From Coriobacteriia bacterium (GTDB taxonomy: Bacteria; Actinomycetota; Coriobacteriia; WRKU01; WQUG01), in contig WQVN01000003.1 of the NCBI GenBank assembly GCA_009785795.1, positions 1 through 61,635 of the forward strand: a DNA stretch of 61,635 nucleotides. The letters are read 5' to 3'. The translations under genes were made by a program, and so were the position numbers. This document shows positions 3,862 through 57,265 of this stretch, piece by piece. The notes below the pieces were generated by a model. The model saw only the letters and a list, made by a program, of their open reading frames with translations. It had not been told where the DNA came from and made no database searches. Within the stretch, counting starts at the first letter, position 1, and each line of letters opens with the position of its first letter.

Positions 3862-5148
3862 CTAACTTTTTTGGACAGGCTCTACCTGAAAGCCCTGTCC
3901 CGTTGGCGTTTTGAGAAACGCTGCAATTACTTCTGAGTTCTCTTCCCTGTTAATTGTACATGTTGCAAAGAGCAGCGTGCCATCATCTGCCACAAGCTGT
4001 GCCGACCAGCTAAGCATCTGCAAGCTTAACCGTGCAAGTTGTGGAATGTCTGCAGACTTTAGCTTCCAGCGCTTATCACTTGCGCGACGCAGGGTACCAA
4101 GTCCCGAACAGGGCGCATCGACCAGCACAGTATCAAAGGATGGATGAACGTTTTGCCGCTCCATGATGCCTGCTGCAGAATGCTTTGTCACATCTGCTGT
4201 GATGTAGCGAACTTCACGCACACCATATTCATCTGCAGTTCTTTGTGCGAGCTTTGTCTTAAAGTCATGCAAGTCAACACCTGTGATGCGTGCAGGCCCA
4301 CCCAGTTTGCGTGCTGCAGCAGCAAGAGCAAGTGACTTTGTGCCACGCCCACTGCCAACTTCAAGAATAGACTGATCGGGGCGGGCCTGACACAGAGCAA
4401 CGACTTGCTGTGCTGCAAGATCCATTGCAGTAAATGACTTACGTTGGTCTGCTGGCAATGCCCAAAACGCACTACGATCATGAATTAGTACCGCACCTGC
4501 AAGACCAGCATCTTCCCAGCTGATGCCCGCTGCATCAAGTATTGCCAGTGATTGCTTTTCCGACTGCAAGAAAGGTAAGTGTGCCACATAGAGCGGTGCC
4601 GGCTCATTATTGACTGCCATAATGTCGCCTGCTGTCTGCACGCCATATTCGCTGCGCAGCAGTTCTGCCATCCATACAGGATGACCATAAAGACGTGCCT
4701 GCGCTACAACATCTGTCAGAGGATTACCGCCAGGAAAAATGTCTGTTGCACGTTGTGACAGGCGACGCAGTACCGCATTCGCAAGGCCATTATATGTCTT
4801 TGATTGCGTAGCAAAGCGCACCATTTCTACGCCTTGGTCTACGACCACATAAGGCTCTGTACCCTCGAAAAATAGTTCATAGGCAGCAATTGCCAGTGCG
4901 TCTTTGACCTCGTCAGGAGTCGATTCAGGACGACTTAATTCTGCTGCCACCAGTTCATCTAGTGTTCCCCGTGTCGCAATTGTGCCAAAGCTTAGGCGCG
5001 TGGCAAACGCCTTATCGCGCGGTGATACCTTCATCTTTGCACCTACTTGCTGTAGGACGCTTTGCATGGTCTCTGCAGCATATGACTGGCGATCGCGAAC
5101 GCGTCGCACAACCTTTAGTGCAATCTTTCGTCCCTGGCTTAGTCCCAC
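3862..5148 (-). CDS. rsmB: 16S rRNA (cytosine967-C5)-methyltransferase
   Basis: NusB-like N-terminus plus a SAM methyltransferase core with DAPCSGLGTLRR. It sits downstream of fmt, as in the usual def-fmt-rsmB order. Confidence 0.85.
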   Translation of the reverse strand: MGLSQGRKIALKVVRRVRDRQSYAAETMQSVLQQVGAKMKVSPRDKAFATRLSFGTIATRGTLDELVAAELSRPESTPDEVKDALAIAAYELFFEGTEPYVVVDQGVEMVRFATQSKTYNGLANAVLRRLSQRATDIFPGGNPLTDVVAQARLYGHPVWMAELLRSEYGVQTAGDIMAVNNEPAPLYVAHLPFLQSEKQSLAILDAAGISWEDAGLAGAVLIHDRSAFWALPADQRKSFTAMDLAAQQVVALCQARPDQSILEVGSGRGTKSLALAAAARKLGGPARITGVDLHDFKTKLAQRTADEYGVREVRYITADVTKHSAAGIMERQNVHPSFDTVLVDAPCSGLGTLRRASDKRWKLKSADIPQLARLSLQMLSWSAQLVADDGTLLFATCTINREENSEVIAAFLKTPTGQGFQVEPVQKS

Positions 5149-6230
5149 TGCAAGCCTTCCTTAACGCCCTTAAAGCCGTTCAGCCAATCTGCTGCAGACA
5201 TTGCTCGCTTGTTGTCTGGCTTGACAGTAAGCAGTTCAACACTGCCATCTGCACAGCCCAGAATCACATGACGCTTACCTTGTTGTTTAATTATTTGCAC
5301 CGTGCCTTGTGGAACTACACACATTCTTTGAGATCCTTCGACTCTATGCTGCGCACTCCGCTCAGGAATGATTTTTACCGTGCTTTCTTCTGACGGATAA
5401 GATCCTTGCCTTCGACATTCCTCGCTACGTTCAGGAATGGAATTGCATATTGCAGTACAAAGCTCAGTACTGGGAATGATGCTTGCAGCCTCAAGAATTG
5501 TTGCGCCCTGTCCTGCAATGCTTAAACGCGCAGGTGCGCTTTCGCTGCTTGCTCGTACGCGCCTAATGAAGTCTACCGTGTGCAATTCTGGTGATAGCCT
5601 TAGTTCACTCTTTTCAATTTTATGTGCGTAGGTAACTGCAACTTCGTCTTGTGTTGTCCACTGTGCGCTGTCTCCCAGCAAGGCAGGCAGATTGTCAAAC
5701 AACAACTGCCCACCCATATCTGCGAGCTCACAATGTAATTCTGTCGCTGTTTTTTCTCCGATATCAGTACTCACAATAGCACAGTAAGGACCTGTATCCA
5801 GACCTTCTTCCATTTGCATGATGCTGACACCAATTTGCATATCACCTGCAAGAATTGCCCGTTCAATGGGTGCTGCTCCACGCCATCTAGGCAGTAGTGA
5901 AGCATGTACATTTACGCAGCCTCGTGGCGGAATATCAAGCACTTCTTTGGGCAATATCATGCCATAAGCCGCAACGACTATCAGGTCTGGGCACAAATCG
6001 CGCAATTGCTGCTGAGCTTCTTCATTGCGCAGAGTTTCGGGGCGAAATAGTGAAAGATTGTTTTCTATCGCAACCCTACTTACGGCACTGGGTACCACAG
6101 CCTTCCCCCGCTTTGAAATAGCATCAGGACGCGAATAGACTGCTGCAACTTCTGCAAATTTTAATGATTCAAGTAACATTTGAAGGATTCGTGCCGCAAA
6201 ATCAGGAGTACCCATAAACACTATGCGCAT
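5139..6230 (-). CDS. fmt: methionyl-tRNA formyltransferase carrying an insertion of about 45 aa in the C-terminal domain
   Basis: MRIVFMGTPDFA N-terminus and a HASLLPRWRGAAPI motif. An alternative upstream ATG at 6332 lies 2 nt after the def stop and would add 34 aa. The C-terminal domain contains the repeat-derived segment NSIPERSEECRRQGS...IIPERSAQHRVEGS. Confidence 0.9.
   Translation of the reverse strand: MRIVFMGTPDFAARILQMLLESLKFAEVAAVYSRPDAISKRGKAVVPSAVSRVAIENNLSLFRPETLRNEEAQQQLRDLCPDLIVVAAYGMILPKEVLDIPPRGCVNVHASLLPRWRGAAPIERAILAGDMQIGVSIMQMEEGLDTGPYCAIVSTDIGEKTATELHCELADMGGQLLFDNLPALLGDSAQWTTQDEVAVTYAHKIEKSELRLSPELHTVDFIRRVRASSESAPARLSIAGQGATILEAASIIPSTELCTAICNSIPERSEECRRQGSYPSEESTVKIIPERSAQHRVEGSQRMCVVPQGTVQIIKQQGKRHVILGCADGSVELLTVKPDNKRAMSAADWLNGFKGVKEGLQWD
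5332..5370. repeat. 39-nt long-form copy of the dispersed GATCCTTCG...GCTCAGGAATG repeat, inside fmt
   Basis: gatccttcgactctatgctgcgcactccgctcaggaatg. It is 32/39 identical to the copy at 53195..53233 and is translated on the minus strand as IPERSAQHRVEGS. Confidence 0.8.
5401..5439. repeat. second 39-nt long-form copy inside fmt (diverged interior)
   Basis: gatccttgccttcgacattcctcgctacgttcaggaatg. It has the same 39-nt length and conserved termini, and is 26/39 identical to 5332..5370. It is translated as IPERSEECRRQGS. Confidence 0.65.
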
Positions 6231-6334
6231 TTTTTGCGCAATAATACCTGGTCTCTCGATTCGCGAGTGATCAGTGTGCCAAGGTCGGTAGCTGGTCCCC
6301 CCTGTAAGAAAACTGTCCTGCATCAATCGCATCC

Positions 6335-6898
6335 TTACCCTACTGGCAAAGCAAAGTATTCGCGCAATGCCAGCTTTTTATCTTGATCGGACAGATGCTC
6401 GACAAAACAAATGCCATCCAAGTGGTCAATCTCGTGCTGAAAAACACGTGCAAGAAAGCCCTCTGCCTGCACAGTCGTTGGATTACCATCAACATCAAAA
6501 GCTTCGACCACAACGCTACTGTTACGTGCAACAGGACGGTACAGTCCAGGAAAAGACAAGCAGCCCTCTTCTTCTTGCAGTAACTCTTCAGAACGTTGAA
6601 CAATGCGCGGATTTATCAAGACACGCGCATCAGTACCCGTTTCACTGTCGTCATAGACAAACATCCGCTTAGGAATGCCCACCTGGATAGCGGCAAGTCC
6701 CACGCCATTTTGCGCACGCATAGCAGCAACTAAATCAGCAACAATCTGCTTTATGCTGCTTGCGTCTTCGTTGTCGAAGTCAATAGGCAGACTAAGCTGT
6801 GCCAGACGTGAATCTGGATGACTTAAAACCTGAAGTGGGTGCGCGTCTGTACATCCACGCCGTGAAGATAATCTCGCAACTGCGCCCTTAATATCCAT
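6335..6898 (-). CDS. def: peptide deformylase
   Basis: GVGLAAIQVG, EGCLSFPG and QHEIDHLDG motifs. Confidence 0.92.
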   Translation of the reverse strand: MDIKGAVARLSSRRGCTDAHPLQVLSHPDSRLAQLSLPIDFDNEDASSIKQIVADLVAAMRAQNGVGLAAIQVGIPKRMFVYDDSETGTDARVLINPRIVQRSEELLQEEEGCLSFPGLYRPVARNSSVVVEAFDVDGNPTTVQAEGFLARVFQHEIDHLDGICFVEHLSDQDKKLALREYFALPVG

Positions 6899-6939: not shown

Positions 6940-7701
6940 CTACTCGTCTGAACCAGTGTAGACTAGCGTGAGTTCGCCGTCATCTGGAATGGGAACCTCA
7001 GTGTCATTTTGCATAACTACAACGTTTTCAGGAGTATCGATTTGAATTTCTGCCAGTAGCACGTCAGAAAACGATTTGCTGCTTCCACCCAACAGTGCTC
7101 CGTCAAAGCCCAGATTGCCATCAATTTCTATCCGTACATTGCTTGCTGTCCCAGGTTCTGTTTGAATGTTCAATGAAAAGGGGGCTCGATCCTCTTCTGG
7201 CACATCTTCTGTTGCATCATTTGTTGCAACTGCACCATCCTCTGAATCTTGCTGATCATCTGCGGCTACTTCAGCAGATACGGGAGTTGCGCGCTGAGCA
7301 GCCTGAGTACCATCGCGACTCATCAGATAAATTGCGCCAACAATTATGGCAATAATAACGACAACCACTATGATGACGCGCCAGTTTATCTCGCTCTCTG
7401 GATGACGAGAACCCAGGCGCTGAGCAGATCCCGAATAGAGGTCTTCGCCTATAGTATCGCGCCTATTACTGCCTGATTGGCGCTCAAATTGTTCAAGGAA
7501 TGGCTGTGGATCAGCATCGCAAACCTTACAGTAACTTAAAATAAAACCGCGGACATATCCTGCAACAGGCAAAGCATCTAATTTGTCATCTTCTAGATTA
7601 TAAATCGCAGACTGCATAATGCGCGTACGCTGCGCAATGTCGTGGGCGCTTAAACCAGCTTCTTTTCTGGCAGCAATTAGCATATCGCCCAGACTAGTCA
7701 T
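6940..7701 (-). CDS. RodZ-like protein (XRE-type HTH, TM helix, DUF4115-like C-terminal domain)
   Basis: N-terminal HTH (LSAHDIAQRTRIMQSAIYNLE), then a TM helix (VIIVVVVIIAIIVGAIYLM), an acidic linker and a beta-rich C-terminal domain. AGGAGA lies upstream of the ATG at 7701. Confidence 0.7.
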   Translation of the reverse strand: MTSLGDMLIAARKEAGLSAHDIAQRTRIMQSAIYNLEDDKLDALPVAGYVRGFILSYCKVCDADPQPFLEQFERQSGSNRRDTIGEDLYSGSAQRLGSRHPESEINWRVIIVVVVIIAIIVGAIYLMSRDGTQAAQRATPVSAEVAADDQQDSEDGAVATNDATEDVPEEDRAPFSLNIQTEPGTASNVRIEIDGNLGFDGALLGGSSKSFSDVLLAEIQIDTPENVVVMQNDTEVPIPDDGELTLVYTGSDE

Positions 7702-7796
7702 GCGTGGCCAACTCTCCTGCGACCACCATTCAGACAGTCGGCACCTAAACCAGCTTCTTTTCTGGCATCAATTAGCATGTCGCCCAAGCCTGTCAT
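7698..7796 (-). CDS. 32-codon upstream ORF created by duplication of the rodZ-like 5' end
   Basis: The peptide is MTGLGDMLIDARKEAGLGADCLNGGRRRVGHA. Its ATG overlaps the ftsK TGA stop (ATGA). Its own TGA overlaps the rodZ-like ATG (ATGA). Whether it is translated is unknown. Confidence 0.3.
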   Translation of the reverse strand: MTGLGDMLIDARKEAGLGADCLNGGRRRVGHA

Positions 7797-10237
7797 GCGT
7801 CGTTCGTTCCCCCATGATCAAAGTCGTCATCATCACCAGAGGTCATCATTTTCGCTAAATCTTCTGCATCCATAAAGACCTCGCGAGGTTTTGAGCCATC
7901 AGGTGGCCCCACTACCCCCTTTGACTGTAACATATCCATGATACGCCCTGCACGCGAATATCCCACTTTGAAACGTCTTTGTATGCCAGAGGTCGACCCA
8001 AAGCCTGCAGACACTACCATTTCTGCTGCCTCCCACAATAAGGGATCGTCCTCACTACTTGCACCACCTGCTGCACCACCACCAGCAGTCGAAGCTGCCG
8101 CGGTCAAAATGTCGTCATGATAGTCAGCGTCGGACTGCTTCTTTATTTCATTGACAACCGCATCGATCTCGCCCTCGGAAACATAACAGCCCTGTATGCG
8201 TTTTGGATGTGGCCATGCTGGTGTTGAAAACAGCATGTCACCAAGTCCCGTCAATTGCTCTGCGCCACTCTGATCAAGCACCACGCGCGAATCAATTGCT
8301 GTTGCCGTTCTAAACGCAACCCTATTGGTAATGTTTGCCTTGATAAGTGACGTTACAACATTGGCATCGGGACGCTGTGTGGCAACAATCAAATGAATGC
8401 CTGCCGCACGCGCCAGCTGCGCAATGCGAACAATGGACGACTCGACTTCTTTTGCTGCAACCATCATGAGATCTGCGAGTTCGTCAATAACGATTACCAG
8501 ATAGGGCATCTCTTCTGCGCCTTCGTCTAATTTTCCATCAATAAGCTGCTGGTTGTACTCTCCAATATTTCGCACTCGTGCCTTTTCAAGTACCTTTAAG
8601 CGACGGTCCATTTCGTGAGTTGCCCATGCAAGTGCAGCTGCCGCCTCTTTTGCTGTGGTGACAACAGGTACATACAGATGCGGCAACCCATTGAACATAG
8701 ACAGCTCAACACGTTTTGGATCGATTAAGATCATGCGCACTTCTGCAGGAGTCGCACGCATGATGATAGACATAATCATGGTATTGATAGCAACAGATTT
8801 ACCTGATCCTGTTGATCCGCCAATCAGCAGATGGGGCATCCCTGCAAGATTACGAGAAATGCTTGCACCCGTGATATCCTTGCCCATAAACAGGGTTAGT
8901 GGACTATCAGCAGATGTCGCAGGCGTGATAATGTCACCTAGAGTCACCGAACTACGATCTGCATTGGGCACCTCTACCCCCACAAGACTCTCACCTGGAA
9001 TGGGTGCCAAAATACGCAAGGTCGGAGCAGCAAGTGCAAGTGCAAGATCATCAGCAAGCGTCGTGACCTTGTTTAGGCGAATACCACGTGCAATCTCGAC
9101 CTTGTACAGGGTGACGGTTGGTCCTACAATCCAGTCAACAACGCGTGAATCAACATCAAATATGCGCAGAGTATCCACCAGAGAATCTGCGGTCGCCTGC
9201 TTTTCTGCATGCGCTTCATCACTGTCTGCACTGCCATTTGCAGCACTTTTCACAAGTAGATCAAGGGATGGCAACTCAAAGCCATCCTGCGCACGAGGTG
9301 TTGTTGTGTTTTGTGTCATCTGTTCTGAGGGACGGGCATCCAGCACCTGCGTTGCAGAATCATTAGTATTGTCTGCCGCATGTCCGCCCTGACAGTCATC
9401 ATAGGCATCATCAAAAGTTCCCTCTGCAAGAATTTCAGTGGAACTGTCACTTGCAGGACTATCTGAAAGTAGTTTTGTTGGCTGATCTTCGAAAGAATTC
9501 GATGCAGGTTGCTTGCGCTTTCTGCTTGTATTGTCAGAGAGCTTTGTCGTGCGCGAACCCTCGCGCATTGCTTGCTCTGCTTCGCGATGAGCACGGCTTT
9601 CCAGAGCAAGCTCTCTGCGCGCAAGGATCCACTCGAAGACTGCTGATAGCGATACTCCCGTAATCACCAGCCCGATTAATGCTACTGCACCTAAGATTAC
9701 GTACGATATGGCAGTGCCCAGCAAGGTATGAAGTCCCCAGGCAATAGCATTACCTACATAGCCTCCAAAAAACTGTAGACCGTCAAAACTAAAGGTTTCT
9801 ACCGTACCCGTTACTGCTTGCAGACCAGCAAGACTGGTGAGTGACAGCAATAAACACCCCAGTCCCAGTGCAAAACGCGCCTCTGCAAAGCGCAGTGCGG
9901 GAATGAAAAAGGTTAGTCCCATAACGATAAGAACAAAGGGAAAGGCAAAGCGTCCAATGCCTATGACGAAGCCCAATCCCAGTGCAATGAATTCCGCAAC
10001 AACACCTGTCTGTGGCAAGATTACGGCAAGTGCAAGTGCAATACCTAATGCCAGTAAAACAATGCCCCAAATGTCTGACAGTGCGCGCTCATCAATAAGG
10101 GGTTCACGTTCAGGTGTATTTTTTGCACGACTTGCCGCTGATTTGCGCGAACCTGTCTTTGCATCGTTTTTGCGCGAACCTGTCTTTGTGGCCTTAGAAC
10201 GCGCTGTTGAACCTGCTGTTTTCTTCTTCGCTGACAC
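7793..10237 (-). CDS. ftsK: DNA translocase FtsK
   Basis: Basic N-terminus, four or more TM helices, a long low-complexity linker, a motor domain with GGSTGSGKSV and DELADLM, and a C-terminal gamma-like winged helix. Confidence 0.92.
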   Translation of the reverse strand: MSAKKKTAGSTARSKATKTGSRKNDAKTGSRKSAASRAKNTPEREPLIDERALSDIWGIVLLALGIALALAVILPQTGVVAEFIALGLGFVIGIGRFAFPFVLIVMGLTFFIPALRFAEARFALGLGCLLLSLTSLAGLQAVTGTVETFSFDGLQFFGGYVGNAIAWGLHTLLGTAISYVILGAVALIGLVITGVSLSAVFEWILARRELALESRAHREAEQAMREGSRTTKLSDNTSRKRKQPASNSFEDQPTKLLSDSPASDSSTEILAEGTFDDAYDDCQGGHAADNTNDSATQVLDARPSEQMTQNTTTPRAQDGFELPSLDLLVKSAANGSADSDEAHAEKQATADSLVDTLRIFDVDSRVVDWIVGPTVTLYKVEIARGIRLNKVTTLADDLALALAAPTLRILAPIPGESLVGVEVPNADRSSVTLGDIITPATSADSPLTLFMGKDITGASISRNLAGMPHLLIGGSTGSGKSVAINTMIMSIIMRATPAEVRMILIDPKRVELSMFNGLPHLYVPVVTTAKEAAAALAWATHEMDRRLKVLEKARVRNIGEYNQQLIDGKLDEGAEEMPYLVIVIDELADLMMVAAKEVESSIVRIAQLARAAGIHLIVATQRPDANVVTSLIKANITNRVAFRTATAIDSRVVLDQSGAEQLTGLGDMLFSTPAWPHPKRIQGCYVSEGEIDAVVNEIKKQSDADYHDDILTAAASTAGGGAAGGASSEDDPLLWEAAEMVVSAGFGSTSGIQRRFKVGYSRAGRIMDMLQSKGVVGPPDGSKPREVFMDAEDLAKMMTSGDDDDFDHGGTNDA

Positions 10238-10264: not shown

Positions 10265-11104
10265 CTAAAAACCGACAAAGTAAAGCGCTGCAAGTACTAC
10301 TCCCAGTAAAGCAGCATATAGCGCAAAGTAATTCAGACTAGTCTTTGACACAAGTCTAATCATCCATGCAATAGTCAGATAACCCAGCACGCCCGCAATC
10401 ACAAAACTCACTGCCGATATCCAAAAGCTAGGCAATATCAAGGTTCCCTGCAACATCCGCGCCACATCGCGCACAGATCCTGCCACGATAATGGGAATCG
10501 TCAGCAGAAAGCTATAACGTGTTGCCTGTGGTCTGGACAGTCCCATCCACAATCCCGCAGCAATAGTCGCACCACTGCGTGAAATTCCTGGAATCACTGC
10601 AAGTCCTTGAATAAATCCAATAAAGGCAGCACGCCCCAAAGTGAGCTTGTCCATTGTCCGCCGCAAATTAAGCTTTGCAAGCACATATTCTGAGGAAATC
10701 AACATGGCTGCCGTCACCACAAACATTGAACCCAGTATTAGCAAATTGCTAGAGAACTGTGCCAGATAGCCCGAGAGCAATAATCCCATGGGACCTGTTA
10801 CCAGCATACTAATAATCAGAAAGATAGTCGTGCGGCGCTGTGGACGCATTGATTCAGCATTCTTTGGCATCCAAGAGACTATAAAGTCTTTAATGTCATT
10901 GCGAAAGTACACCACAGCAGCAATCAGGGTTGGAATATGCAGAAAGAAGTAAAAATCGACTGCTGCCTGCGGATCACCGTCAAAAAACATATTCAAAATC
11001 GACAAATGTCCAGAACTTGACACGGGAATAAATTCTGTTATCCCCTGCACAATCGCCATAACGACAGCATATGTCCAATCAGCTATGACAACTATGCTTA
11101 ACAC
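10265..11104 (-). CDS. uppP: undecaprenyl-diphosphate phosphatase
   Basis: BacA/UppP signature GITEFIPVSSSGHL and PGISRSG; polytopic membrane protein. Confidence 0.9.
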   Translation of the reverse strand: MLSIVVIADWTYAVVMAIVQGITEFIPVSSSGHLSILNMFFDGDPQAAVDFYFFLHIPTLIAAVVYFRNDIKDFIVSWMPKNAESMRPQRRTTIFLIISMLVTGPMGLLLSGYLAQFSSNLLILGSMFVVTAAMLISSEYVLAKLNLRRTMDKLTLGRAAFIGFIQGLAVIPGISRSGATIAAGLWMGLSRPQATRYSFLLTIPIIVAGSVRDVARMLQGTLILPSFWISAVSFVIAGVLGYLTIAWMIRLVSKTSLNYFALYAALLGVVLAALYFVGF

Positions 11105-11116
11105 TGTCGCGCACTC

Positions 11117-12994
11117 TTAAATTTCCATCAAAATGGGAATAATCATTGGACGTGTTTTTGTGCGTTCCCACACCAATTGTGAGACAGCATCACGTACAGA
11201 GCGACGTGCGTTATGCAGTGGTGCATTTTCACGCAGATTGCGCTCCAGTGTTTTCTCTGCGCGTTCTGCAATTTCTGATTGGAAAAAATCAGCATCTGAA
11301 ACGCTTACCCCACGTAGAATAATTTCAACATCGCCTGCTACTTTTTTACGACGGCGGCTTACATTGGCAACAACTGTCACGATACCGTCTTGGCTCAAAT
11401 GTTGCCTGTCGCGCAAAACTACGCTGTCAAAGTCGCCCACGTTTAAGCCGTCAACATAGATAACACCGTTATGAACAGGGTCTTTTTGATATGCGCCATC
11501 TGCATCAAATTCAAGCACATCGCCATTTTCAAGCACAAATATATACTCTGGCGGGATGCCTACCTCGAGGGCAAGATTCTTATGGGCATGCAGATGTCTG
11601 GTCTCACCGTGAACTGGCATGAAATATTCTGGCTTGATTATATTCAGCAGCAACTTCAGTTCTTCTGACGCGGCATGCCCGCTGACATGCACCATCGCAT
11701 TTGACTTGTCATAGACAGTCGCACCACATTTGATTAACTGGTTAATAACGGTATTCACTGCCTGCTCATTGCCTGGAACAGGAGTTGCTGAAAAAATTAC
11801 CGTATCATCAGTGCCAATGCGAATGCTTCTGTGTTCACCTATCGCCATGCGGGACAACGCAGACAGTGGCTCGCCCTGACTGCCCGTACACAGCACAACA
11901 ATATCCTCTGGCGCGTGATCACGCAAATCATATGCATCAAGCAGCATGTGTTGATCAATATTAAAGTAGCCCAATTTACCTGCGATTTCAGTATTGCGCA
12001 GCATGCTACGCCCCGTCACCGCAATTTTTCTACCTGCAGCGATCACTGCATCACAAATTTGCTGTACTCGATGAATGTGACTGGAAAACGATGCAATGAT
12101 TACCCGTCCTGGCGCACGCTTAATAATGCCCTGCAAAGTACGTCCAACCTCTGCCTCGCTACGAGTAACGCCGGGCACTTCTGCACCTGTCGAGTCTGAA
12201 AGCAGCAGCATAACACCATTCTCTCCTGCTGCAGCAAGTGCACCGTAGTCAGCAACCTTGCCGTCGATAGGCGTTTGGTCAAACTTGAAGTCGCCTGTGT
12301 GCAATATGTCTCCAACAGGAGTCTTGATCAGAATTGCAAGCGCGTCAGGAATTGAGTGATTAATGTGAATAAAGTTCAAATCAAAAACACCACACGAAAC
12401 ATCACTGTCGCCAGTGACCTCCGTGTACTTAACATTCTTTATGCCATGTTCATCCAACTTACCCTTAATCATGCCGCAAGTCAGCTTACTTGCAATAATG
12501 GGCACACTCCGGCGGCTTAAGTCCTTTAACAGCCAAGGCAGAGCACCCGTGTGATCTTCGTGACCATGCGTAATGACAATGCCACGCAGCTTATGTTCAT
12601 TTTCAACAACGTATGCATAATCAGGCAAAATCAAATCAATGCCCAACTGCTGATCGTTGGGAAACATCAATCCTGCATCGACAACAATCATGTCATCACC
12701 GTATTCAAATACGGTCATGTTTTTGCCAATGCCGTCAAGTCCACCTAGAGGAATCACGCGCAGACGAGCACTTTGCGCTTTTTCTCGCTGCTTCTTTGGC
12801 GCTGATTTTTGCGGCTGCTTATTGCGTGGCTTTGATTTTGTCTTGGGCTTCGACGCAGGTCCTGTTTTCGCTAACTGCTTATCTTTTTGCTTTGCCAACT
12901 GCCTATCGCCTTGACGAAGCAGCTGGTTCCCTTTACTTTTTTTACCTTTTTTACTGCTCGCAGTATTTGTTTCACCTGATGGCTTAGAGCTCAT
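11117..12994 (-). CDS. rnj: ribonuclease J with a lysine-rich N-terminal extension of about 85 aa
   Basis: Metallo-beta-lactamase/beta-CASP core (HGHEDHTG). ATG at 12994 has GGAGG 4 nt upstream and overlaps the dapA 3' end by 11 nt. Confidence 0.9.
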   Translation of the reverse strand: MSSKPSGETNTASSKKGKKSKGNQLLRQGDRQLAKQKDKQLAKTGPASKPKTKSKPRNKQPQKSAPKKQREKAQSARLRVIPLGGLDGIGKNMTVFEYGDDMIVVDAGLMFPNDQQLGIDLILPDYAYVVENEHKLRGIVITHGHEDHTGALPWLLKDLSRRSVPIIASKLTCGMIKGKLDEHGIKNVKYTEVTGDSDVSCGVFDLNFIHINHSIPDALAILIKTPVGDILHTGDFKFDQTPIDGKVADYGALAAAGENGVMLLLSDSTGAEVPGVTRSEAEVGRTLQGIIKRAPGRVIIASFSSHIHRVQQICDAVIAAGRKIAVTGRSMLRNTEIAGKLGYFNIDQHMLLDAYDLRDHAPEDIVVLCTGSQGEPLSALSRMAIGEHRSIRIGTDDTVIFSATPVPGNEQAVNTVINQLIKCGATVYDKSNAMVHVSGHAASEELKLLLNIIKPEYFMPVHGETRHLHAHKNLALEVGIPPEYIFVLENGDVLEFDADGAYQKDPVHNGVIYVDGLNVGDFDSVVLRDRQHLSQDGIVTVVANVSRRRKKVAGDVEIILRGVSVSDADFFQSEIAERAEKTLERNLRENAPLHNARRSVRDAVSQLVWERTKTRPMIIPILMEI

Positions 12995-18796: not shown

Positions 18797-20032
18797 CTAT
18801 CTATCCTCTCTATCTGTCAGCACGCGGTCTATAGTACCACCGCCTAGCACAGTACCTGCACTGTCAAAGAACACTGCGGCCTGTCCAGGAGTGATTGCTC
18901 GTTGTGCGACGTCAAAGCATACCTGAACGTACTCTGCACTTTGATGTTGCACACACTGGATTGTTCCTGCATGCTTGGCGTGCTTGTAGCCCACTTTAAC
19001 ATGACACTTCATGGGCTGTGTGGGCGCTATTGGCAGAGCTATCCAGTTTAGGTCACGCACCAGAAAATCTGTATGCAGCAAGCCCTGTTCGTCATCACCA
19101 ATCGTAACGGTATTTGCCACAGCATCAATTGACTGTACAAAGACTGGTCTGCCATGCGCACCCAATCCCTTACGTTGGCCAATTGTGTAATAAATCAGCC
19201 CCTTATGCTGTCCAACAGCCCGACCATTTACATCAAGCATATCGCCAGGAACAGGAAGTTCCTGGCCGCCTGCCACACGTGTGCGTTCGATATAGCCAGC
19301 ATAATCCCCATCTGGCACAAAGCAAATATCCTGGCTCTCAGCTTTTTCTGCATTGGAAAAACCAGCATCTGCAGCAAGCAGGCGAATCTCAGACTTGTGA
19401 TAATCGCCTAATGGCAGCTTGATGCGAGATAACTGTTCTTGCGATAAGGTGTACAGCACATAACTCTGATCTTTACGACTATCCACTGCACTTTGCACAA
19501 CCCAGCGACTATAGTTCTCGCTATAGTTAATACAAGCATAGTGGCCTGTTGCAAGAACATCGCAGTCCAGCTCATCTGCAATTTCAAGTAGCGCACCAAA
19601 CTTCAATTGCCTATTGCAGACAATGCAGGGGTTAGGAGTTTCACCCGATGCATAACCTTGTATAAATGGCTCGATTACTTGGTGAGAAAAACGTGTACGT
19701 AGATCATACTTGTAAAAGGGAATTTCAAGCTGCCGAGCAATGTTGGCAGCTGCTTGTGCTTCAGAGCTTGGGGGCAAAATCTCGCATGATGCCTTCAGTG
19801 GTGACATGCAAGATCCTTCGCTTTGCTCAGGAATGATATCTGGACATACATCACCGTGCAGTAACATGTGAACACCCATGCAGTCGTACCCCGCACGCTG
19901 CATCAACAGTGCGGTCACCGAGCTATCAACTCCCCCACTCATTGCTATCAAAGCCCGCTTTTTCAAACCAATCCCCAAATCCAAACAAATAGCAAAGATG
20001 CCCCTAGTGCTCAAGGTCAAGGCGGATTGCAT
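18797..20032 (-). CDS. mnmA: tRNA 2-thiouridine(34) synthase MnmA, with a repeat-derived in-frame insertion
   Basis: PP-loop SGGVDSS and full-length MnmA-like sequence. The true start may be the TTG at 19966 (LKKRALIAMSGG), which has GGGGA upstream. The insertion IIPEQSEGS is encoded by the dispersed repeat. Confidence 0.88.
   Translation of the reverse strand: MQSALTLSTRGIFAICLDLGIGLKKRALIAMSGGVDSSVTALLMQRAGYDCMGVHMLLHGDVCPDIIPEQSEGSCMSPLKASCEILPPSSEAQAAANIARQLEIPFYKYDLRTRFSHQVIEPFIQGYASGETPNPCIVCNRQLKFGALLEIADELDCDVLATGHYACINYSENYSRWVVQSAVDSRKDQSYVLYTLSQEQLSRIKLPLGDYHKSEIRLLAADAGFSNAEKAESQDICFVPDGDYAGYIERTRVAGGQELPVPGDMLDVNGRAVGQHKGLIYYTIGQRKGLGAHGRPVFVQSIDAVANTVTIGDDEQGLLHTDFLVRDLNWIALPIAPTQPMKCHVKVGYKHAKHAGTIQCVQHQSAEYVQVCFDVAQRAITPGQAAVFFDSAGTVLGGGTIDRVLTDREDR
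19810..19835. repeat. 24-nt short-form copy of the dispersed repeat inside mnmA
   Basis: aagatccttcgctttgctcaggaat (19810..19834) is an exact 25-mer match to 57099..57123. It is translated on the minus strand as IIPEQSEGS. Confidence 0.85.
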
Positions 20033-52145: not shown

Positions 52146-52828
52146 ACGAACTAATTAGAGTAGCGCTAGTTGATGACGACCCCTTTGTGCGTGCTTCACT
52201 CGCCACTATTCTTTCTGCAGATGATAGCGTCGAAATATGTGGTGAAGCAGGCAACGGAAAGGATGCAATTGCGCTTTATGCAGATGTGCAGCCCGACATT
52301 TTGCTCATGGACATTCAGATGCCTACTGTTGATGAAATCGCTAATGGGCTTGACGCAGCGACAGAAATTCTGCAGGGCTTTCCTGATGCACGAATTGTTT
52401 TTCTGACAACCTTCTCAGATGAAGAATATCTAAAAACTGCTCTGCGTCTGGGTTCAAAAGGCTACCTGATTAAGCAAGAAGTTGGCACCCTATTGCCTGC
52501 CCTGCGCTCGGTTATGGCAGGACAAGTTGTTCTGGGCTCAGAAATACCAGAAAAAATGGGGGCACTCCTTGCAGATAAGGATGCGAGCAGCGACAAGCAC
52601 GTACGCGAACAAGCAGCACGCGACGGTCTATCAGAGCGAGAATTTCAAGTGCTTGAACTCATTGCATCTGGACAGGACAACAAAGAAGTTGCAGCAGAGC
52701 TTTTCGTGAGTGAGGGTACTGCGCGTAACTACGTGAGCAATATATTGCAGAAACTTGCGCTAAAGAATCGTACGCAGCTTGCAAGCTACTATCATCGAGC
52801 TCTTGGTCAGACTCTTAATAGTCCCTGA
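52142..52828 (+). CDS. LuxR/NarL-family response regulator
   Basis: Receiver domain (VDDDPF..., LLMDIQMP), a C-terminal LuxR HTH (LSEREFQVLELIASGQDNKEVAAELFVSEGTARNYVSNI), and an ATGA overlap with the kinase gene. Confidence 0.9.
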   Translation: MNELIRVALVDDDPFVRASLATILSADDSVEICGEAGNGKDAIALYADVQPDILLMDIQMPTVDEIANGLDAATEILQGFPDARIVFLTTFSDEEYLKTALRLGSKGYLIKQEVGTLLPALRSVMAGQVVLGSEIPEKMGALLADKDASSDKHVREQAARDGLSEREFQVLELIASGQDNKEVAAELFVSEGTARNYVSNILQKLALKNRTQLASYYHRALGQTLNSP

Positions 52829-53604
52829 GCTATGCGCTGCACGACTGCGTTGATGTCAAGCGGACTATAATCCATGCTGTCCTGCTTGCTTCCTTCGCAT
52901 TCCTCAGCGTAGCGAAGGATCTCACCTGTTCCGCCTAAGCGCGCTTCACGAGCACTGATTAGATTGAGCGCACCGTCTGCCACCTGGTCAGGACTTAGAC
53001 CACAGGTATCAATCCGTCTGGCTATGTAGCCAAAGTTGCGCTGCAGCCAATACAGCAGTAGCTCAAAAGCTGATTGCTGAGCGGCAATTGCATTAACGGT
53101 ATAGACACGACTCGCATCCATGCGACGGTGGATTGTCACAGGATCGCCATGCAAGAACAGCAATTCGCCAGATGCTGGTGTTGCAGACATATGAGATCCT
53201 TTGGCTTCGTGCTGCACACTTCGCTCAGGAATGGTGGAAGTGTGTGCATGGGTGCTGGAAAGTGCTTCTGCAGATGTTGCAGCCATCATTTGCTGGGCGC
53301 GCTCTTGCCACAATTCAGGTCTGTAAAAAGCAAAGGTGTCAAGAGGCGAACGGTCAATTACAAACAGCTCAGCTGGATCTGCATTAATGAGCTGATTCTT
53401 GCGTGCAAGCTGCTCAAATATCCATGATTGAATGTCAGCGATGTCATCTTCTGAATGTGCATCCATAGACTGCCCAACTTGAGCTGTCATTGTTTCTGGC
53501 CATTCCTCATAGATGCTTGCCTGTGGCAAGCGTCGAGCAAGCTCATCTCGCAGAGTTGACTTGCCTACCCCCACAACTCCCATGATGTAATAACGCCGCT
53601 GCAC
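52807..53604 (-). CDS. P-loop NTPase, deoxynucleoside-kinase-like; function unknown
   Basis: Walker A GVVGVGKST near the N-terminus and a DRSPLD motif. The GTG start overlaps the uvrA TAG stop by 1 nt. It contains two repeat-derived segments (TIPERSVQHEAKGSH and GEILRYAEECEGS). Confidence 0.7.
   Translation of the reverse strand: MQRRYYIMGVVGVGKSTLRDELARRLPQASIYEEWPETMTAQVGQSMDAHSEDDIADIQSWIFEQLARKNQLINADPAELFVIDRSPLDTFAFYRPELWQERAQQMMAATSAEALSSTHAHTSTIPERSVQHEAKGSHMSATPASGELLFLHGDPVTIHRRMDASRVYTVNAIAAQQSAFELLLYWLQRNFGYIARRIDTCGLSPDQVADGALNLISAREARLGGTGEILRYAEECEGSKQDSMDYSPLDINAVVQRIAQGLLRV
52891..52921. repeat. short-form repeat copy in inverted orientation, with an extra 7-bp flanking inverted repeat
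   Basis: The reverse complement of 52898..52921 is gatccttcgctacgctgaggaatg, which is 21/24 identical to the mnmA copy. tccttcg (52891..52897) pairs with cgaagga (52913..52919). It is translated as EILRYAEECEGS. Confidence 0.7.
53195..53233. repeat. 39-nt long-form repeat copy inside the P-loop gene
   Basis: gatcctttggcttcgtgctgcacacttcgctcaggaatg is 32/39 identical to the fmt copy at 5332..5370. It is translated as IPERSVQHEAKGS. Confidence 0.8.
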
Positions 53605-56417
53605 TAAGACAAAACTTCCCGCAGGTACTTGCCCGTATACGAACCTTTGACCTGAGCAACCTCCTCAGGAGTACCACTGGCTACAACATTGCCACCAGCC
53701 TGTCCTCCTTCAGGACCCAGATCTATAATATGGTCAGCACTCTTGATTACATCTAAGTTATGCTCAACTATAAGCACCGTATTGCCACCATCAACCAGAC
53801 GCTCCAGCACCAGCAACAGCTGACGCACATCATCAAAATGTAATCCAGTCGTTGGTTCATCTAGTATGTAGAATGTTCTTCCCGTACTGCGACGCTGCAA
53901 TTCACTTGCAAGTTTGACGCGCTGTGCTTCTCCACCACTTAAGGTTGTCGCTGCCTGACCCAGACGAATATAACCCAGCCCCACATCAAAGAGTGTTTGC
54001 AACTTGCGCTTAACTGGTGGAATATTTTCAAAAAAGCTCAGGGCTTCTTCAACGCTCATGCCTAAAATATCACTGACATTCTTACCGCGATAAGTCACTT
54101 GTAGCGTCTCGCGATTGTAGCGTTTCCCACCACAAACTTCGCAAGGCACATAAATGTCGGGCAAAAAGTGCATCTCAATCTTTATCTGTCCGTCACCCTT
54201 ACAGGCCTCACAACGACCACCTGCAACGTTAAAGCTAAAGCGTCCTGGCGCATATCCTCGAGCCTTTGCCTCAGGAGTCGACGACAGTAGCCCGCGAATA
54301 TCGTCCCACACTCCTGTATAGGTAGCAGGATTAGATCGCGGAGTACGTCCAATCGGACTCTGATTAATATCAATGACTTTGTCGAGTGCGCCCAATCCAC
54401 GTATTTCACGATAGCTGCCCACACGACGACGTGCACGCTGCAGTCTATTAGCAAGAAGTGGCGCAAGAGTATCAGTGATTAGCGACGATTTCCCGCTGCC
54501 AGATACTCCTGTCACAACAGTCAAAGCCCCAATAGGAATATCAATGTCAATGCCTTGCAGATTATTTTCGCCTGCACCAAATAACTCGATATCGCCACGC
54601 TCTGGATTGCGACGCTCACTGGGTACGGGGATTTCGCGCCTGCCACTCAAATAGTCAGCAGTCATTGACTTGCGGCTGCGCTCAACCTGCTTTGGGGTGC
54701 CCTGTGCAACGATTTCACCGCCATGTTCACCCGCGCCTGGACCCATGTCAATAACATGGTCTGCCGCACGAATTGTATCCTCATCGTGTTCAACCACAAT
54801 TACCGTGTTACCTAGGTCTCGCAAACGCTCAAGTGTCGCAATCAGGCGTGCATTATCGCGCTGATGCAGACCAATGCTGGGCTCATCAAGTATGTACAGT
54901 ACACCCATAAGACCTGCACCAATTTGTGTCGCCAGACGAATACGTTGTGCTTCTCCGCCACTTAGCGTCGCAGTTGCACGCTCAAGAGTCAAATAGTCTA
55001 GCCCAACATCAACCAGAAAGTTCAGTCGCTCGACAATTTCTTTATTCACGCGTGCTGCAATGGCAAGGTCGCGCTCACTTAATGTCAGGCCATTAAAGAA
55101 ATCCAATGAATCTTTTGCCGACATAGAAGTTATCTGAAAGATATTCTTGCCCCCCACGGTAACGGCAAGAATCTCTGGTTTTAGACGTGCACCCCCACAG
55201 GTCTTACAGGGAATAACTGCCATGTAACGCTCCATTTTTGTGCGCACTTGCTCAGAGTCAGAGTCTGCATGCTTGCGCATGACCTCTGCAACTGCGCCTC
55301 CCCATGTGCTAAACCAGTGAGTCTCGCGACCGCTCCGTGTCATGTATCTAACCTGAATGCGATCTTCTCCTGTGCCAAACATAAACTTATCGCGCACGTC
55401 CACAGGTAGCTCACCCCAAGGAGTATCTATATCAGCACCAATGTGGTCTGCAATTGCTGCAAACAATTGCGGATAATAGTTGCCACCTGTACCAAAGGGA
55501 GCAAGTGCGCCCTGAGCTATGGACAGTTCGGGATCGGGCGCAACAAGTGCTGCATCAACTTCGAGACGAGAACCCAGACCACTGCAGTCTGGACATGCTC
55601 CATATGGCGCATTAAAACTGAAGTCGCGCGGAGCAAGCTCATCAAGTGATATGCCATGTTCGGGACAAGCAAGTGCCTGCGAAAAAGTTTGTGTGTCTTC
55701 TCCTGCAAGCACTGTCACCAGGCCGCCTGCAATACGCAGGGCAACCTCGACGGCATCTGTCAGGCGGGTACGTGAACTTTCACGCAGTACGATGCGATCA
55801 ACCACTACATCGATATCATGCTTGAATTTCTTATCAAGTTCGATTTTCTCATCGAGAGTGCGCAATTCGCCATCAACACGAACACGCAAAAATCCTTCTG
55901 CGCGCAAATCTTCAAAGAGCTTTGCAAACTCGCCTTTGCGTCCACGCACTACAGGGGCAAGCACCTGCAGGCGATCACCCTCTGCCCCCTGCATGATAAG
56001 GTCAACTATCTGGTCAGGAGTCTGACGACTAATTTCAATTCCACAGACAGGACAATGGGGAATGCCCACACGTGCGAACAACAGGCGCAGATAGTCATAG
56101 ATTTCAGTTACCGTACCAACCGTTGAGCGCGGATTCTTACTCGTGGTTTTTTGATCTATCGATACTGCAGGCGAAAGCCCCTCAATGTGATCAACATCGG
56201 GCTTGCTCATCTGTCCAAGAAATTGACGAGCATAAGCAGAAAGTGACTCAACGTAACGTCGCTGTCCCTCTGCATAAATAGTGTCAAAAGCAAGCGAAGA
56301 CTTCCCACTGCCAGAAAGTCCGGTAATCACAACCAATTTGTCGCGCGGAATCTGCAAATCAATATTTTGCAGATTGTGTTCACGTGCTCCTTTTATCGCA
56401 ATTTTTTCCGTAGCCAA
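53604..56417 (-). CDS. uvrA: excinuclease ABC subunit A
   Basis: Two ABC ATPase modules (GLSGSGKSS and GVSGSGKSS), zinc-finger cysteines, LSGGEAQR signatures, and a TTG start at 56417. Confidence 0.95.
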
Positions 56418-56456
56418 GATTATTTAGTTCTCCTTACGAAATCATGTATTAAAATC

Positions 56457-56489
56457 TACCGAAAGTACGGTATCCTTACTATTATAGCA
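56457..56489 (-). promoter_or_regulatory. candidate uvrA promoter (extended -10 TGCTATAAT) followed by the palindrome TACCG-N6-CGGTA
   Basis: On the minus strand TGCTATAAT occupies 56489..56481. The inverted repeat taccgaaagtacggta occupies 56457..56472, 8 nt further downstream on that strand and 40 nt before the TTG start. Confidence 0.3.
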
Positions 56490-56546
56490 AGATTATCCTC
56501 AATTAGGACAAACAACTATTCGTTAATATGCATAAGGAGTAGGTCC

Positions 56547-57095
56547 ATGGCAAGAGGCTCAAGTGGTGACAGAGGTACGACCATTGTTGGCAGTGGTCAT
56601 GCTGCTAATCGTATGCCAAAAAATCATGTGCTCGTCGAATTCTCTGGTGCATTAGATGAAGCACAAGTTGCCCTAGGATTTGCCATTGTCGAATCTCAGG
56701 CGCAGGAACACGCGCATCAACTGAGCGAACTCACTGACTGTCTGGTCTGGATGCAGCGACAGATATTCGCCTCGGGAACTATCGTCTTGAAAAATGCTCC
56801 TATGGATGCAATCGCTGATTGGTCATGGGACAAACTACTTGAAGAAGTTGAGCGCTGCAACAACTATTTTGCCCCAACAAAGCCTATACGTGACTTCATC
56901 TTGCCAGGCGGATCAGAACTCGCAGCTCGTATAGAGTTTGTACGTGTCGCTATCAGAAGAGTCGAACGAAGCTACTGTGCTTGTAGTTTTCCCGACCGCG
57001 ATGCCTTGCCATTCTACAACCGCCTATCAAAGCTGGCATTCACCCTTGCCCGCCACAGTAATGAAGTCCTTGAAGCACCTGAAACTCTACTGTAA
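56547..57095 (+). CDS. ATP:cob(I)alamin adenosyltransferase, PduO type
   Basis: The start MARGSSGDRGTT has AAGGAG 8 nt upstream. GD.GTT and GALDEAQVALG motifs are typical of the PduO/MMAB family. Size is about 183 aa. Confidence 0.8.
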   Translation: MARGSSGDRGTTIVGSGHAANRMPKNHVLVEFSGALDEAQVALGFAIVESQAQEHAHQLSELTDCLVWMQRQIFASGTIVLKNAPMDAIADWSWDKLLEEVERCNNYFAPTKPIRDFILPGGSELAARIEFVRVAIRRVERSYCACSFPDRDALPFYNRLSKLAFTLARHSNEVLEAPETLL

Positions 57096-57098
57096 TTG

Positions 57099-57123
57099 AA
57101 GATCCTTCGCTTTGCTCAGGAAT
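57099..57123. repeat. intergenic short-form copy of the dispersed repeat
   Basis: aagatccttcgctttgctcaggaat is identical over 25 nt to 19810..19834. It begins 4 nt after the adenosyltransferase stop codon. Confidence 0.85.
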
Positions 57124-57175
57124 AGTAATAATGCATCAAAGCACCAATAGTGTTCCAAACCTTCAGTGTTAAGAC

Positions 57176-57237
57176 GAGTCAAAAAACTCAGCTGTGAAGC
57201 GTAGCAACCTTACGTGAACAGCTGAGTTTTTTGACTC
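57176..57237. terminator. bidirectional rho-independent terminator between convergent genes
   Basis: Perfect 20-bp stem gagtcaaaaaactcagctgt / acagctgagttttttgactc with a 22-nt loop. The A- and T-runs give a U-tract in both directions. Confidence 0.75.
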
Positions 57238-57265
57238 GACGCAGAGACTGGAGACGCCTGGGGCG

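Follow-up and report, generated by a model that had tools for sequence, protein, structure and literature searches.

The methionyl-tRNA formyltransferase gene (fmt) of an uncultured Coriobacteriia bacterium contains two 39-nt segments in the same orientation, and related sequences recur at distant sites on the same contig. What are these segments, and how did they come to lie within a housekeeping gene? The DNA in question, positions 1 to 61,635 of contig WQVN01000003.1 and referred to here as the window (61.6 kb), consists nearly entirely of housekeeping genes and is ~94% coding. An earlier sequence-only reading had proposed that a short dispersed repeat is translated in-frame twice inside fmt; both copies were confirmed in the sequence, and their translation is presumed from the intact frame. 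We conclude, with a probability of roughly 0.8, that each fmt segment represents a small interspersed repeat of the repetitive extragenic palindromic (REP) type, one whose DNA forms a hairpin.

Six copies of one repeat

The repeat is present six times in the window, within genes in five cases and between genes in one, and has two size classes of 24 and 39 nt, correctly described before as multiples of three. Both copies in fmt are of the 39-nt form and lie in sense orientation on the minus strand. Copy A spans 5331-5369 (ATTCCTGAGCGGAGTGCGCAGCATAGAGTCGAAGGATCT on the coding strand; GATCCTTCGACTCTATGCTGCGCACTCCGCTCAGGAATG on the plus strand at 5332-5370) and encodes IPERSAQHRVEGS (aa 322-334), and copy B spans 5400-5438 (ATTCCTGAACGTAGCGAGGAATGTCGAAGGCAAGGATCT on the coding strand; 5401-5439 reads GATCCTTGCCTTCGACATTCCTCGCTACGTTCAGGAATG) and encodes IPERSEECRRQGS (aa 299-311). 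The 30-nt spacer between them (5370-5399, minus strand, encoding YPSEESTVKI) is not repeated elsewhere. The third 39-nt copy, C (53194-53232, minus strand), lies in sense orientation within an AAA_28 kinase-like open reading frame (ORF; 52807-53604, minus strand) and encodes IPERSVQHEAKGS. The 24-nt form is represented by copy D (19811-19834, minus strand), sense within mnmA (18797-20032) and encoding IPEQSEGS, by the intergenic copy E (57100-57123, minus strand), and by copy F (52899-52922, plus strand), which lies in the same AAA_28 ORF as copy C in the opposite orientation and is read antisense as EILRYAEE. These last four are the further copies that the sequence-only reading had listed. 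All five intragenic copies have a length of 3n and no stop codon, and the four sense copies read as IPE(R/Q)S...GS.

The exact pattern of termini is expected 0.00 times in shuffled sequence, which excludes chance as its source. Full termini had been ascribed to both fmt copies; copy A has them, but copy B, the most diverged of the six, has GATCCTT...GTTCAGGAATG instead. The three 39-nt copies are mutually identical at 24-32/39 positions, and copies D and E are 100% identical over 25 nt (19810-19834 and 57099-57123). A covariance model trained on copies from other organisms plus the three short window copies, which consequently match partly by construction, returned the six copies as its six best matches in the window. 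The short copies scored E ~5e-10 to 5e-9 (D, 4.8e-10; E, 5.1e-9; F, 5.5e-9) and the long ones E 0.012-1.5 (A, 0.012; B, 1.5 with a loop insertion), and the only other matches in the window were three weaker ones with E 3-9. Rfam gave no match at gathering thresholds over the whole window, and around the fmt copies only a chance plastid match. A longer composite element was considered and rejected, as the 75-nt flanks of the six copies share nothing.

In the sense strand the unit reads C-ATTCCTGAGC(A/G)(A/T)AGCGAAGGATCT-(C/T). The 24-nt form folds with TCCT/AGGA as a 4-bp stem, followed by a tandem G.A pair, a second stem of GC/GC and a loop of 3 nt, which is AAA or GTA in the window and GAA elsewhere. 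The nine stem positions are A-T (with one bulged T), T-A, C-G, C-G, T-A, G.A, A.G, G-C and C-G, that is, seven standard and two non-standard pairs. In copies A and C the apical triloop is exchanged for a longer loop, with ~18 nt between the GC pairs; copy B has diverged further. Within the apex lies GCGNAGC, a sequence that forms unusually stable DNA mini-hairpins (PMC13037366).

Copy E begins 5 nt past the stop codon of a PduO-type cobalamin adenosyltransferase gene (56367-57095, plus strand) and stands 51 nt ahead of a perfect 21-bp inverted repeat with a 22-nt loop (57175-57238; CGAGTCAAAAAACTCAGCTGT / ACAGCTGAGTTTTTTGACTCG). The inverted repeat lies between the convergent adenosyltransferase gene and rpoD and is probably a two-way terminator.

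Inserts in the host proteins

The fmt ORF (5139-6332, minus strand, 397 aa) was identified by Pfam (Formyl_trans_N, 2.4e-42, and Formyl_trans_C) and by the Fmt chains of the Protein Data Bank (E ~1e-63). In an alignment of 25 Fmt sequences the motifs of the catalytic region are invariant, and a 52-aa segment of the C-terminal domain (aa 288-339; 5316-5471, minus strand) is specific to this lineage, with relatives and distant orthologues alike lacking a homologous segment. This insert, composed of STELCTAICNS-IPERSEECRRQGS-YPSEESTVKI-IPERSAQHRVEGS-QRMCV, had been estimated at ~45 aa between ILEAASIIP and VPQGTVQII; the correct length is 52 aa. The equivalent loop of E. coli Fmt had been put at only a handful of residues; query residues 33-289 and 349-386 align to residues 2-257 and 265-302 of the 1fmt chain, leaving ~8 residues in the E. 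coli protein where this Fmt has ~60. Fmt of the Eggerthellaceae has a short loop without the insert. The nearest relatives are from uncultured Coriobacteriia (52-66% identity, with conserved gene order) and have 0 to ~60 extra residues in the loop, their sequence differing by lineage. Such variation in length and sequence marks the loop as an insertion hot spot in this clade. One relative (P0012) has a decayed hairpin of a related type in the loop (...GAACGAGCGCAGCGCGTCGAAGAATCTC).

An AlphaFold2 model of Fmt (mean predicted local distance difference test score, pLDDT, 83) is confident except for an N-terminal extension and residues ~291-340. Per block of ten residues, pLDDT is 66 at 291-300 and 42-54 across 301-340, and exceeds 90 on either side of the insert. 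The insert is placed between strands 275-284 and 344-350 of the C-terminal domain, and this 52-residue surface loop of the β-barrel domain is probably disordered.

The other host proteins present the same picture. Copy D lies within a ~25-aa insert unique to this MnmA (within aa 60-89, nt 19766-19855), and copies C and F lie within inserts of 32 aa (aa 111-142) and 26 aa (aa 220-245) in the AAA_28 protein; the stretches containing IPEQSEGS, IPERSVQHEAKGS and EILRYAEE are missing from all relatives in the MnmA and AAA_28 alignments. These alignments show that every intragenic copy sits in an insert unique to this genome, and we infer that insertion events within this lineage brought the copies there. 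The host ORFs are intact and their domains complete. The insert DNA beyond the repeat core is not repeated in the window.

Could the fmt pair instead have arisen by local duplication or slippage in a fast-evolving loop, with its likeness to other sites due to gene conversion? The two copies are in direct orientation with starts 69 nt apart, the length of the Fmt loop is highly variable across the clade, and the inserts exceed the repeat core in every host gene. A 69-nt tandem duplication was nonetheless rejected because the flanks of copies A and B do not align, and the spacer does not align either. Copy A is, moreover, closer to copy C at a distance of 48 kb (32/39) than to its neighbour B (26/39), other copies occupy unrelated genes, in either orientation, and an intergenic site, and matches to the core at 21-24/24 bases occur in other phyla. 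We regard this origin as very unlikely.

Relatives of the host proteins carry additions of other kinds. In the same Fmt loop, three relatives (P0002, P0003 and P0009) have another repeated segment, ATTGCGGAGCGTGCTGAAGACCCT (L019, 10922-10945 and 10994-11017; L021, 10853-10876), read as IAERAEDP or IAERTEHP; it is present twice in P0002, begins like a hairpin of the same class without a complementary 3' half, and has no further copy in the surrounding 17-21 kb. MnmA of related Coriobacteriia (P0131, P0134, P0138 and P0124) has other lineage-specific inserts, among them ~35 extra residues in P0134 that include RGDARPYK, which resembles a translated GTAG-type REP, an (A/P)NET repeat run in P0138 and an Ala/Thr-rich stretch in P0131. 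Judging by these alignments, it seems common in this clade for housekeeping genes to carry in-frame additions.

Elsewhere in the window, fmt is neighboured by def (6335-6898) and rsmB (3862-5148). A 64-nt direct repeat, 86% identical, lies at 7642-7705 and 7737-7800 with starts 95 nt apart; one copy spans the start codon and first codons of an HTH_25 gene (6940-7701, minus strand) and the other is situated a little upstream, adjacent to the ftsK end, an arrangement suggestive of a gene start that was partly duplicated.

Distribution and covariation in other organisms

A scan of a genome collection for the 24-mer ATTCCTNAGCNNAGCGAAGGATCT, which has three free positions, found 18 DNA stretches on 17 contigs from 16 genome records, against ~0.3 matches expected by chance on our own estimate. 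The hosts belong to Bacteroidota, Ignavibacteria, Acidobacteriota, Saccharibacteria, Bdellovibrionales and several Pseudomonadota, along with one other metagenome-assembled genome from Coriobacteriia. Given this spread over many phyla, the core is not an invention of the present lineage. In other organisms the usual form is (C/T)GTC-ATTCCTGAGCGAAGCGAAGGATCT-C; the triplet upstream of the core is GTC in 8/19 copies and GTA or GTT in 8 more, and copies with a (C/T)GTC tag and a C-led tail match the window core at 21-24/24 bases.

The pairing of the stem was examined in IMG/VR with the pattern GTCAT-NNN-GAGCGAAGCGA-NNN-ATCTC, which occurs in 50 copies. The two NNN triplets are fully complementary in 43/50 and represent five stem types; in the pooled alignment 98% of positions are paired, compared with 16-47% when the partner columns are slid. 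Such covariation shows that hairpin pairing is selected. In two homologous long ORFs of 579 and 710 codons (L023, 561-587; L044, 11594-11620) the hairpin occupies the same position, but its stems, TCT/AGA and CCT/AGG, differ in a compensating way. Long open frames contain about half of the IMG/VR copies, with readings such as VILSEAKNL, HSERSEES and EILRFAQDD. One (L060, 936-962) is in frame in a 460-codon ORF that, from a motif only, we take to encode a terminase large subunit.

Other collections were less productive. BLAST with two stem variants gave one weak match in 50,697 GenBank phage records and none in PLSDB plasmids, which suggests that the element is mostly seen in uncultured material. 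The 39-nt form was not found elsewhere in a metagenome collection, one that does not include the window genome; the single match, in a high-GC ORF that is secE-like by its translation only, is due to chance. No copy was found in ~87 kb of syntenic DNA from five relatives. A full-text literature search with the nucleotide core and the encoded peptides returned only primer coincidences. In a cultured isolate, the Bacteroidota Gillisia hiemivivida, an array of 93-nt and 257-nt tandem units follows a transporter gene (L005, 3683-4812; L013), and within it two hairpin types alternate in opposite orientation (ATTCCTGAGCGTAGCGAAGGATCTC and GAGATTCCTCAATTCTTCGGAATGAC) to form a BIME/NIME-like mosaic.

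These readings bear on whether the repeat might be a peptide, IPERS...GS, selected as a module for enzyme function with the nucleotide likeness secondary. The sequence-only reading had stressed the common frame ATT CCT GAG, and all four sense intragenic copies do share it; the agreement is statistically weak evidence, since only one of the three sense frames has a stop codon (TGA), and with two sense frames open it would arise by chance with a frequency of ~1/8. The identity of the intergenic copy with that in mnmA, the antisense copy read as EILRYAEE and the three unrelated host genes mark the repeat as a nucleotide element and not a peptide motif. With the Fmt insert also modelled at low confidence, and the same DNA read in other frames in other organisms, a protein-level module is barely credible.

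Hairpins beside genes for Ssn-like nucleases

Two published classes provide the closest parallels. CGTC-tagged REPs (Di Nocera, De Gregorio & Rocco 2013; PMC3733652) have a CGTC, TGTC or CCTC tag, an 8-9-bp stem starting with AT, a 4-5-nt loop and a 3-nt tail; the CGTC-1 family corresponds to dRS3 of Neisseria, RPE-6 and RPE-4 of Rickettsia conorii correspond to CGTC-1 and CGTC-4, and, as that paper noted, no dedicated transposase was known. The second class, NTS and Ssn-related motifs (SRMs), is found on the flanks of genes for the Ssn family, which are small single-domain GIY-YIG nucleases (cd10448) (Chenal et al. 2025; PMC11893778). In single-stranded form the top strand is bound by SsnA, which cleaves it a few bases upstream; binding depends critically on the C that follows the palindrome, and cleavage on the three bases in front of it (PMC11893778).

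We observed the association of hairpins with Ssn-like genes in several settings, which replicates the link already published in PMC11893778. Classical CGTC hairpins flank Ssn-like genes in Neisseria, Azospirillum and many IMG/VR loci, other GTCAT-tagged hairpins flank those of Spirosoma, and a Planktothrix plasmid (L073) has an Ssn-like gene flanked by a variant with a compensatory C-G to T-A change. Three hairpins with the GAGCGAAGCGA apex surround an Ssn-like gene on an IMG/VR contig (L063). The published SRM motif, HGTCWYN(0-2)YYVSBRHN(0-5)WNVSBRGN(0-2)RNCYNB, was run as a regular expression; it matches the Neisseria and Azospirillum controls and misses the Ssn-flanking hairpins of Planktothrix (L073), of Spirosoma (L075) and of the GAGCGAAGCGA-apex type (L063). 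Real Ssn-flanking hairpins thus escape the motif, and surveys based on it would undercount the class.

The organisation of some of these units can be described further. In L063 (10640-11280) two hairpins arranged head-to-head lie to one side of the Ssn-like gene (10844-11188, minus strand) and a lone hairpin to the other. A terminator-like palindrome (GGCGCACCCTT...AAGGGTGCG) stands in direct orientation at both ends of the whole, and it may represent a target duplication or belong to the unit itself. On Azospirillum lipoferum plasmid AZO_p3 (L076, 254818-256496) hairpin pairs stand to either side of an Ssn-like gene that is situated between sufB and sufC, inside an operon of essential function. 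Similar units lie between two glycoside hydrolase genes in Spirosoma and between the gene for an MmeI-type enzyme and drmA in Planktothrix.

It might be supposed that the window repeat belongs to an independent REP-like family that converged on the CGTC/SRM architecture through the intrinsically stable GCGNAGC apex (PMC13037366) and is moved by a RAYT/IS200-type, IS110-type or other enzyme, or by none. The window copies fail the SRM motif and are without the GTC tag, and the window has no ssn gene. Most SsnA homologues are in Gram-negative bacteria (PMC11893778), the host here being of the actinomycete lineage, and similar apices occur in GTAG REPs such as that of Coxiella (PMC2817692). Against this, the near-identical copies in other phyla bear the (C/T)GTC tag and the C-led tail, the same apex subtype lies on both sides of the Ssn-like gene in L063 and has its compensatory variant in Planktothrix, and 21-24/24 identity across phyla would be hard to reach by convergence alone. 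We consider convergence unlikely, if still worth entertaining.

A related issue is whether the hairpins are kept for a role in the transcript or the DNA, for example as a ribosome pause, an RNase or mRNA-stability signal or a site that modulates recombination. Precedents exist, as an effect of NTS on Neisseria transformation has been demonstrated (PMC11893778) and REPs can stabilise mRNA (cited in PMC3733652). Stem covariation implies selection on pairing at some stage of the element's life, and the binding-critical C is kept in 6/6 window copies while the cleavage-critical GTC is lost. The covariation is equally expected, however, if pairing is needed for propagation only. Where the copies lie bears no constant relation to domains, starts or stops, one is antisense, the 39-nt copies are strongly diverged, and relatives are without copies at the same sites. 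A retained function therefore seems improbable to us.

A proposed model for the spread of the repeat

The explanation that we favour, a hairpin repeat of REP type, would work as follows. The repeat would have spread via a single-stranded intermediate through the action of an enzyme, Ssn-type or otherwise, whose gene would lie in another part of the genome; as single-stranded DNA, hairpins of this class are bound, and cut a few bases upstream, by the Ssn-family enzymes whose genes they flank. The repeat is dispersed through the genome, at ~1 copy per 10 kb of this contig. Insertions that destroy a gene would be lost, and units of 24 or 39 nt would survive in exposed loops: with that length, and with five of the six frames free of stops, copies in solvent-exposed loops keep the frame intact. 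The survivors would be translated as hydrophilic peptides of 8 or 13 residues and may be near-neutral. The proportion of intragenic copies (5/6) matches the coding density, with no sign that genes are avoided.

The orientation of the copies would suit a single-strand mechanism. The minus strand holds 45/51 long ORFs and the plus-strand GC skew is -0.10, and in 5/6 copies the top strand of the repeat lies on the G-rich strand, corresponding to the lagging-strand template; this bias has n=6 only, with gene orientation as a confounder.

Several points weigh against this reading. The insertion events are reconstructed from a closest Fmt that is only 66% identical, with no near-identical empty site, and translation of the copies is deduced from intact frames only. 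The repeat core accounts for 8-26 of the 25-52 aa in each insert, leaving inserts 2-3 times longer than the core. Nearest-neighbour folding is of modest energy, at -6 kcal/mol for RNA and -2 for DNA, and its z-scores do not stand out. Neither the 61.6-kb window nor ~95 kb of relatives' loci yielded an Ssn-like gene, a transposase or a RAYT to profile hidden Markov models and Pfam, and the SRM expression matches none of the six copies, nor their cross-phylum consensus. Compared with CGTC REPs, the tag in the window is reduced to its last C, without GTC; the stem contains a tandem G.A and a bulged T; the loop has 3 nt (or ~18) instead of 4-5 nt; and the six copies are single, with no head-to-head dimers. 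When the window itself was searched for a mobilising enzyme, 48 ORFs compared with Pfam proved to be housekeeping genes or had no match, the sole GIY-YIG domain being that of UvrC.

The loss of the GTC tag with retention of the binding C is suggestive, and it admits a bolder version of the same idea. The copies might belong to a tag-less subfamily of Ssn-type hairpins adapted to the genes of a Gram-positive lineage, in which keeping the binding base and losing the cleavage bases would make them 'bind-only' or immune sites, and the hairpin together with its accompanying extra sequence might be a main source of new disordered loops in the housekeeping proteins of the clade. The variable Fmt loop and the odd MnmA inserts of relatives would fit such hairpin-driven gain of loops. 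We hold this extension to be doubtful.

With the simpler reading, that of a dispersed REP-type hairpin, the window has several implications. The case brings an uncultured lineage of Coriobacteriia into the class that joins CGTC REPs, NTS/SRM and Ssn nucleases, and it adds a hairpin subtype, with the GAGCGAAGCGA apex and G.A mismatches, that lies outside the published SRM motif and is also found in environmental genomes of Bacteroidota, Acidobacteriota, Ignavibacteria and Saccharibacteria and in phage-like contigs. It offers a clean example of selfish hairpins, 3n long and poor in stops, that appear to add disordered segments to Fmt, MnmA and a kinase-like ATPase. Annotators may recognise IPERSEGS, VILSEAKDL, HPERSEGS and EILRFAQDD as translated hairpin DNA, and for Ssn target searches structure-aware models are preferable to a degenerate motif. 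The earlier remark on novelty for this kind of organism holds in part: as far as our search went, such elements have not been reported from Coriobacteriia, and the host lineage is to that extent new, but the class and its in-frame copies have already been described. No new kind of system is revealed; the intragenic share is unusually high.

Comparison with known repeats

Precise insertion of very short repeats, including insertion in genes, is reportedly also a property of the SDR of heterocystous cyanobacteria attributed to Elhai et al. 2008, which are said to be hairpin-capable and 21-27 nt long, about 24 nt. The SDR have other sequences and are not known to have a partner enzyme, so that the likeness to the window repeat is a tentative one.

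GTAG REPs and REPINs, which are moved by RAYT tyrosine transposases (Nunvar 2010, PMC2817692; Bertels & Rainey 2011, PMC3116915), are likewise small tagged hairpins that lie beside the gene of a recognising enzyme and are occasionally intragenic. Some of them share the GA-GC-loop-GC-GA apex, an example being the Coxiella REP GTAGGTTGGGCTGAGCTTGCGAAGCCCAAC (PMC2817692). They differ in the GTAG tag, in their HUH Y1 transposase and in being overwhelmingly extragenic.

The Rickettsia palindromic elements (RPEs), to which the repeat had been likened by the sequence-only reading, are an apt comparison, as PMC3733652 equates the short RPE-4 and RPE-6 with CGTC REPs and the architecture is shared. Long families such as RPE-1 measure 100-150 bp (PMC1779305; cited in PMC3733652). 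Like them, the window repeat would be a selfish palindromic element, in frame in housekeeping genes, of lineage-specific spread and tolerated as extra surface segments; in the window the ORFs are intact, the inserts are absent from orthologues and the Fmt insert is modelled as a low-confidence loop. The long RPEs are, however, four to six times the length of the 24/39-nt units and inhabit obligate intracellular alphaproteobacteria, and the likeness is drawn from published descriptions.

With NTS/SRM the window repeat shares the hairpin architecture and orientation and the C after the palindrome, present in 6/6 copies (...AGGAT-C-T). It differs in that the cleavage-critical GTC is not conserved, only its C being kept, and in that 5/6 copies are intragenic as against 2% of the NTS in N. 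meningitidis (PMC11893778).

The CGTC-tagged REPs are a further close parallel. These are imperfect palindromes, 20-40 bp in length, that carry an unpaired tag on the 5' side, open the stem with A-T and T-A and end in a short unpaired tail, a plan that the window repeat resembles. Both are dispersed in many copies, and both include intragenic in-frame units, which in the published class occur sometimes twice per ORF and often in genes for tRNA- or DNA-handling enzymes, the inserts being argued to sit in flexible loops (PMC3733652). Copies of the window core in other phyla bear CGTC or TGTC. In the window the triplets upstream of the core are ATC, TCC, ATC, ACC, ACT and CGC, and the four bases before ATTCCT are AATC, TTCC, TATC, CACC, TACT and TCGC, the final C recurring in 5/6. 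The tail is CTC, CTT or CTA (C-led in 6/6) instead of CCA; CTC and CTT tails occur in Ssn-flanking hairpins elsewhere (L117, L106). In place of head-to-head pairs, the fmt copies are direct and 69 nt apart, and an inverted pair in the AAA ORF is ~270 nt apart. The host, an actinomycetote of the class Coriobacteriia, lies outside the five phyla of PMC3733652, and there too 5/6 intragenic copies set the window apart. Near-identical copies that bear the tag in other organisms, and the same apex near Ssn-like genes, taken together with the failure of the window copies to show the tag or match the motif, lead us to describe the element as a tag-degenerate relative of the CGTC REP/SRM class and not as a strict member of it.

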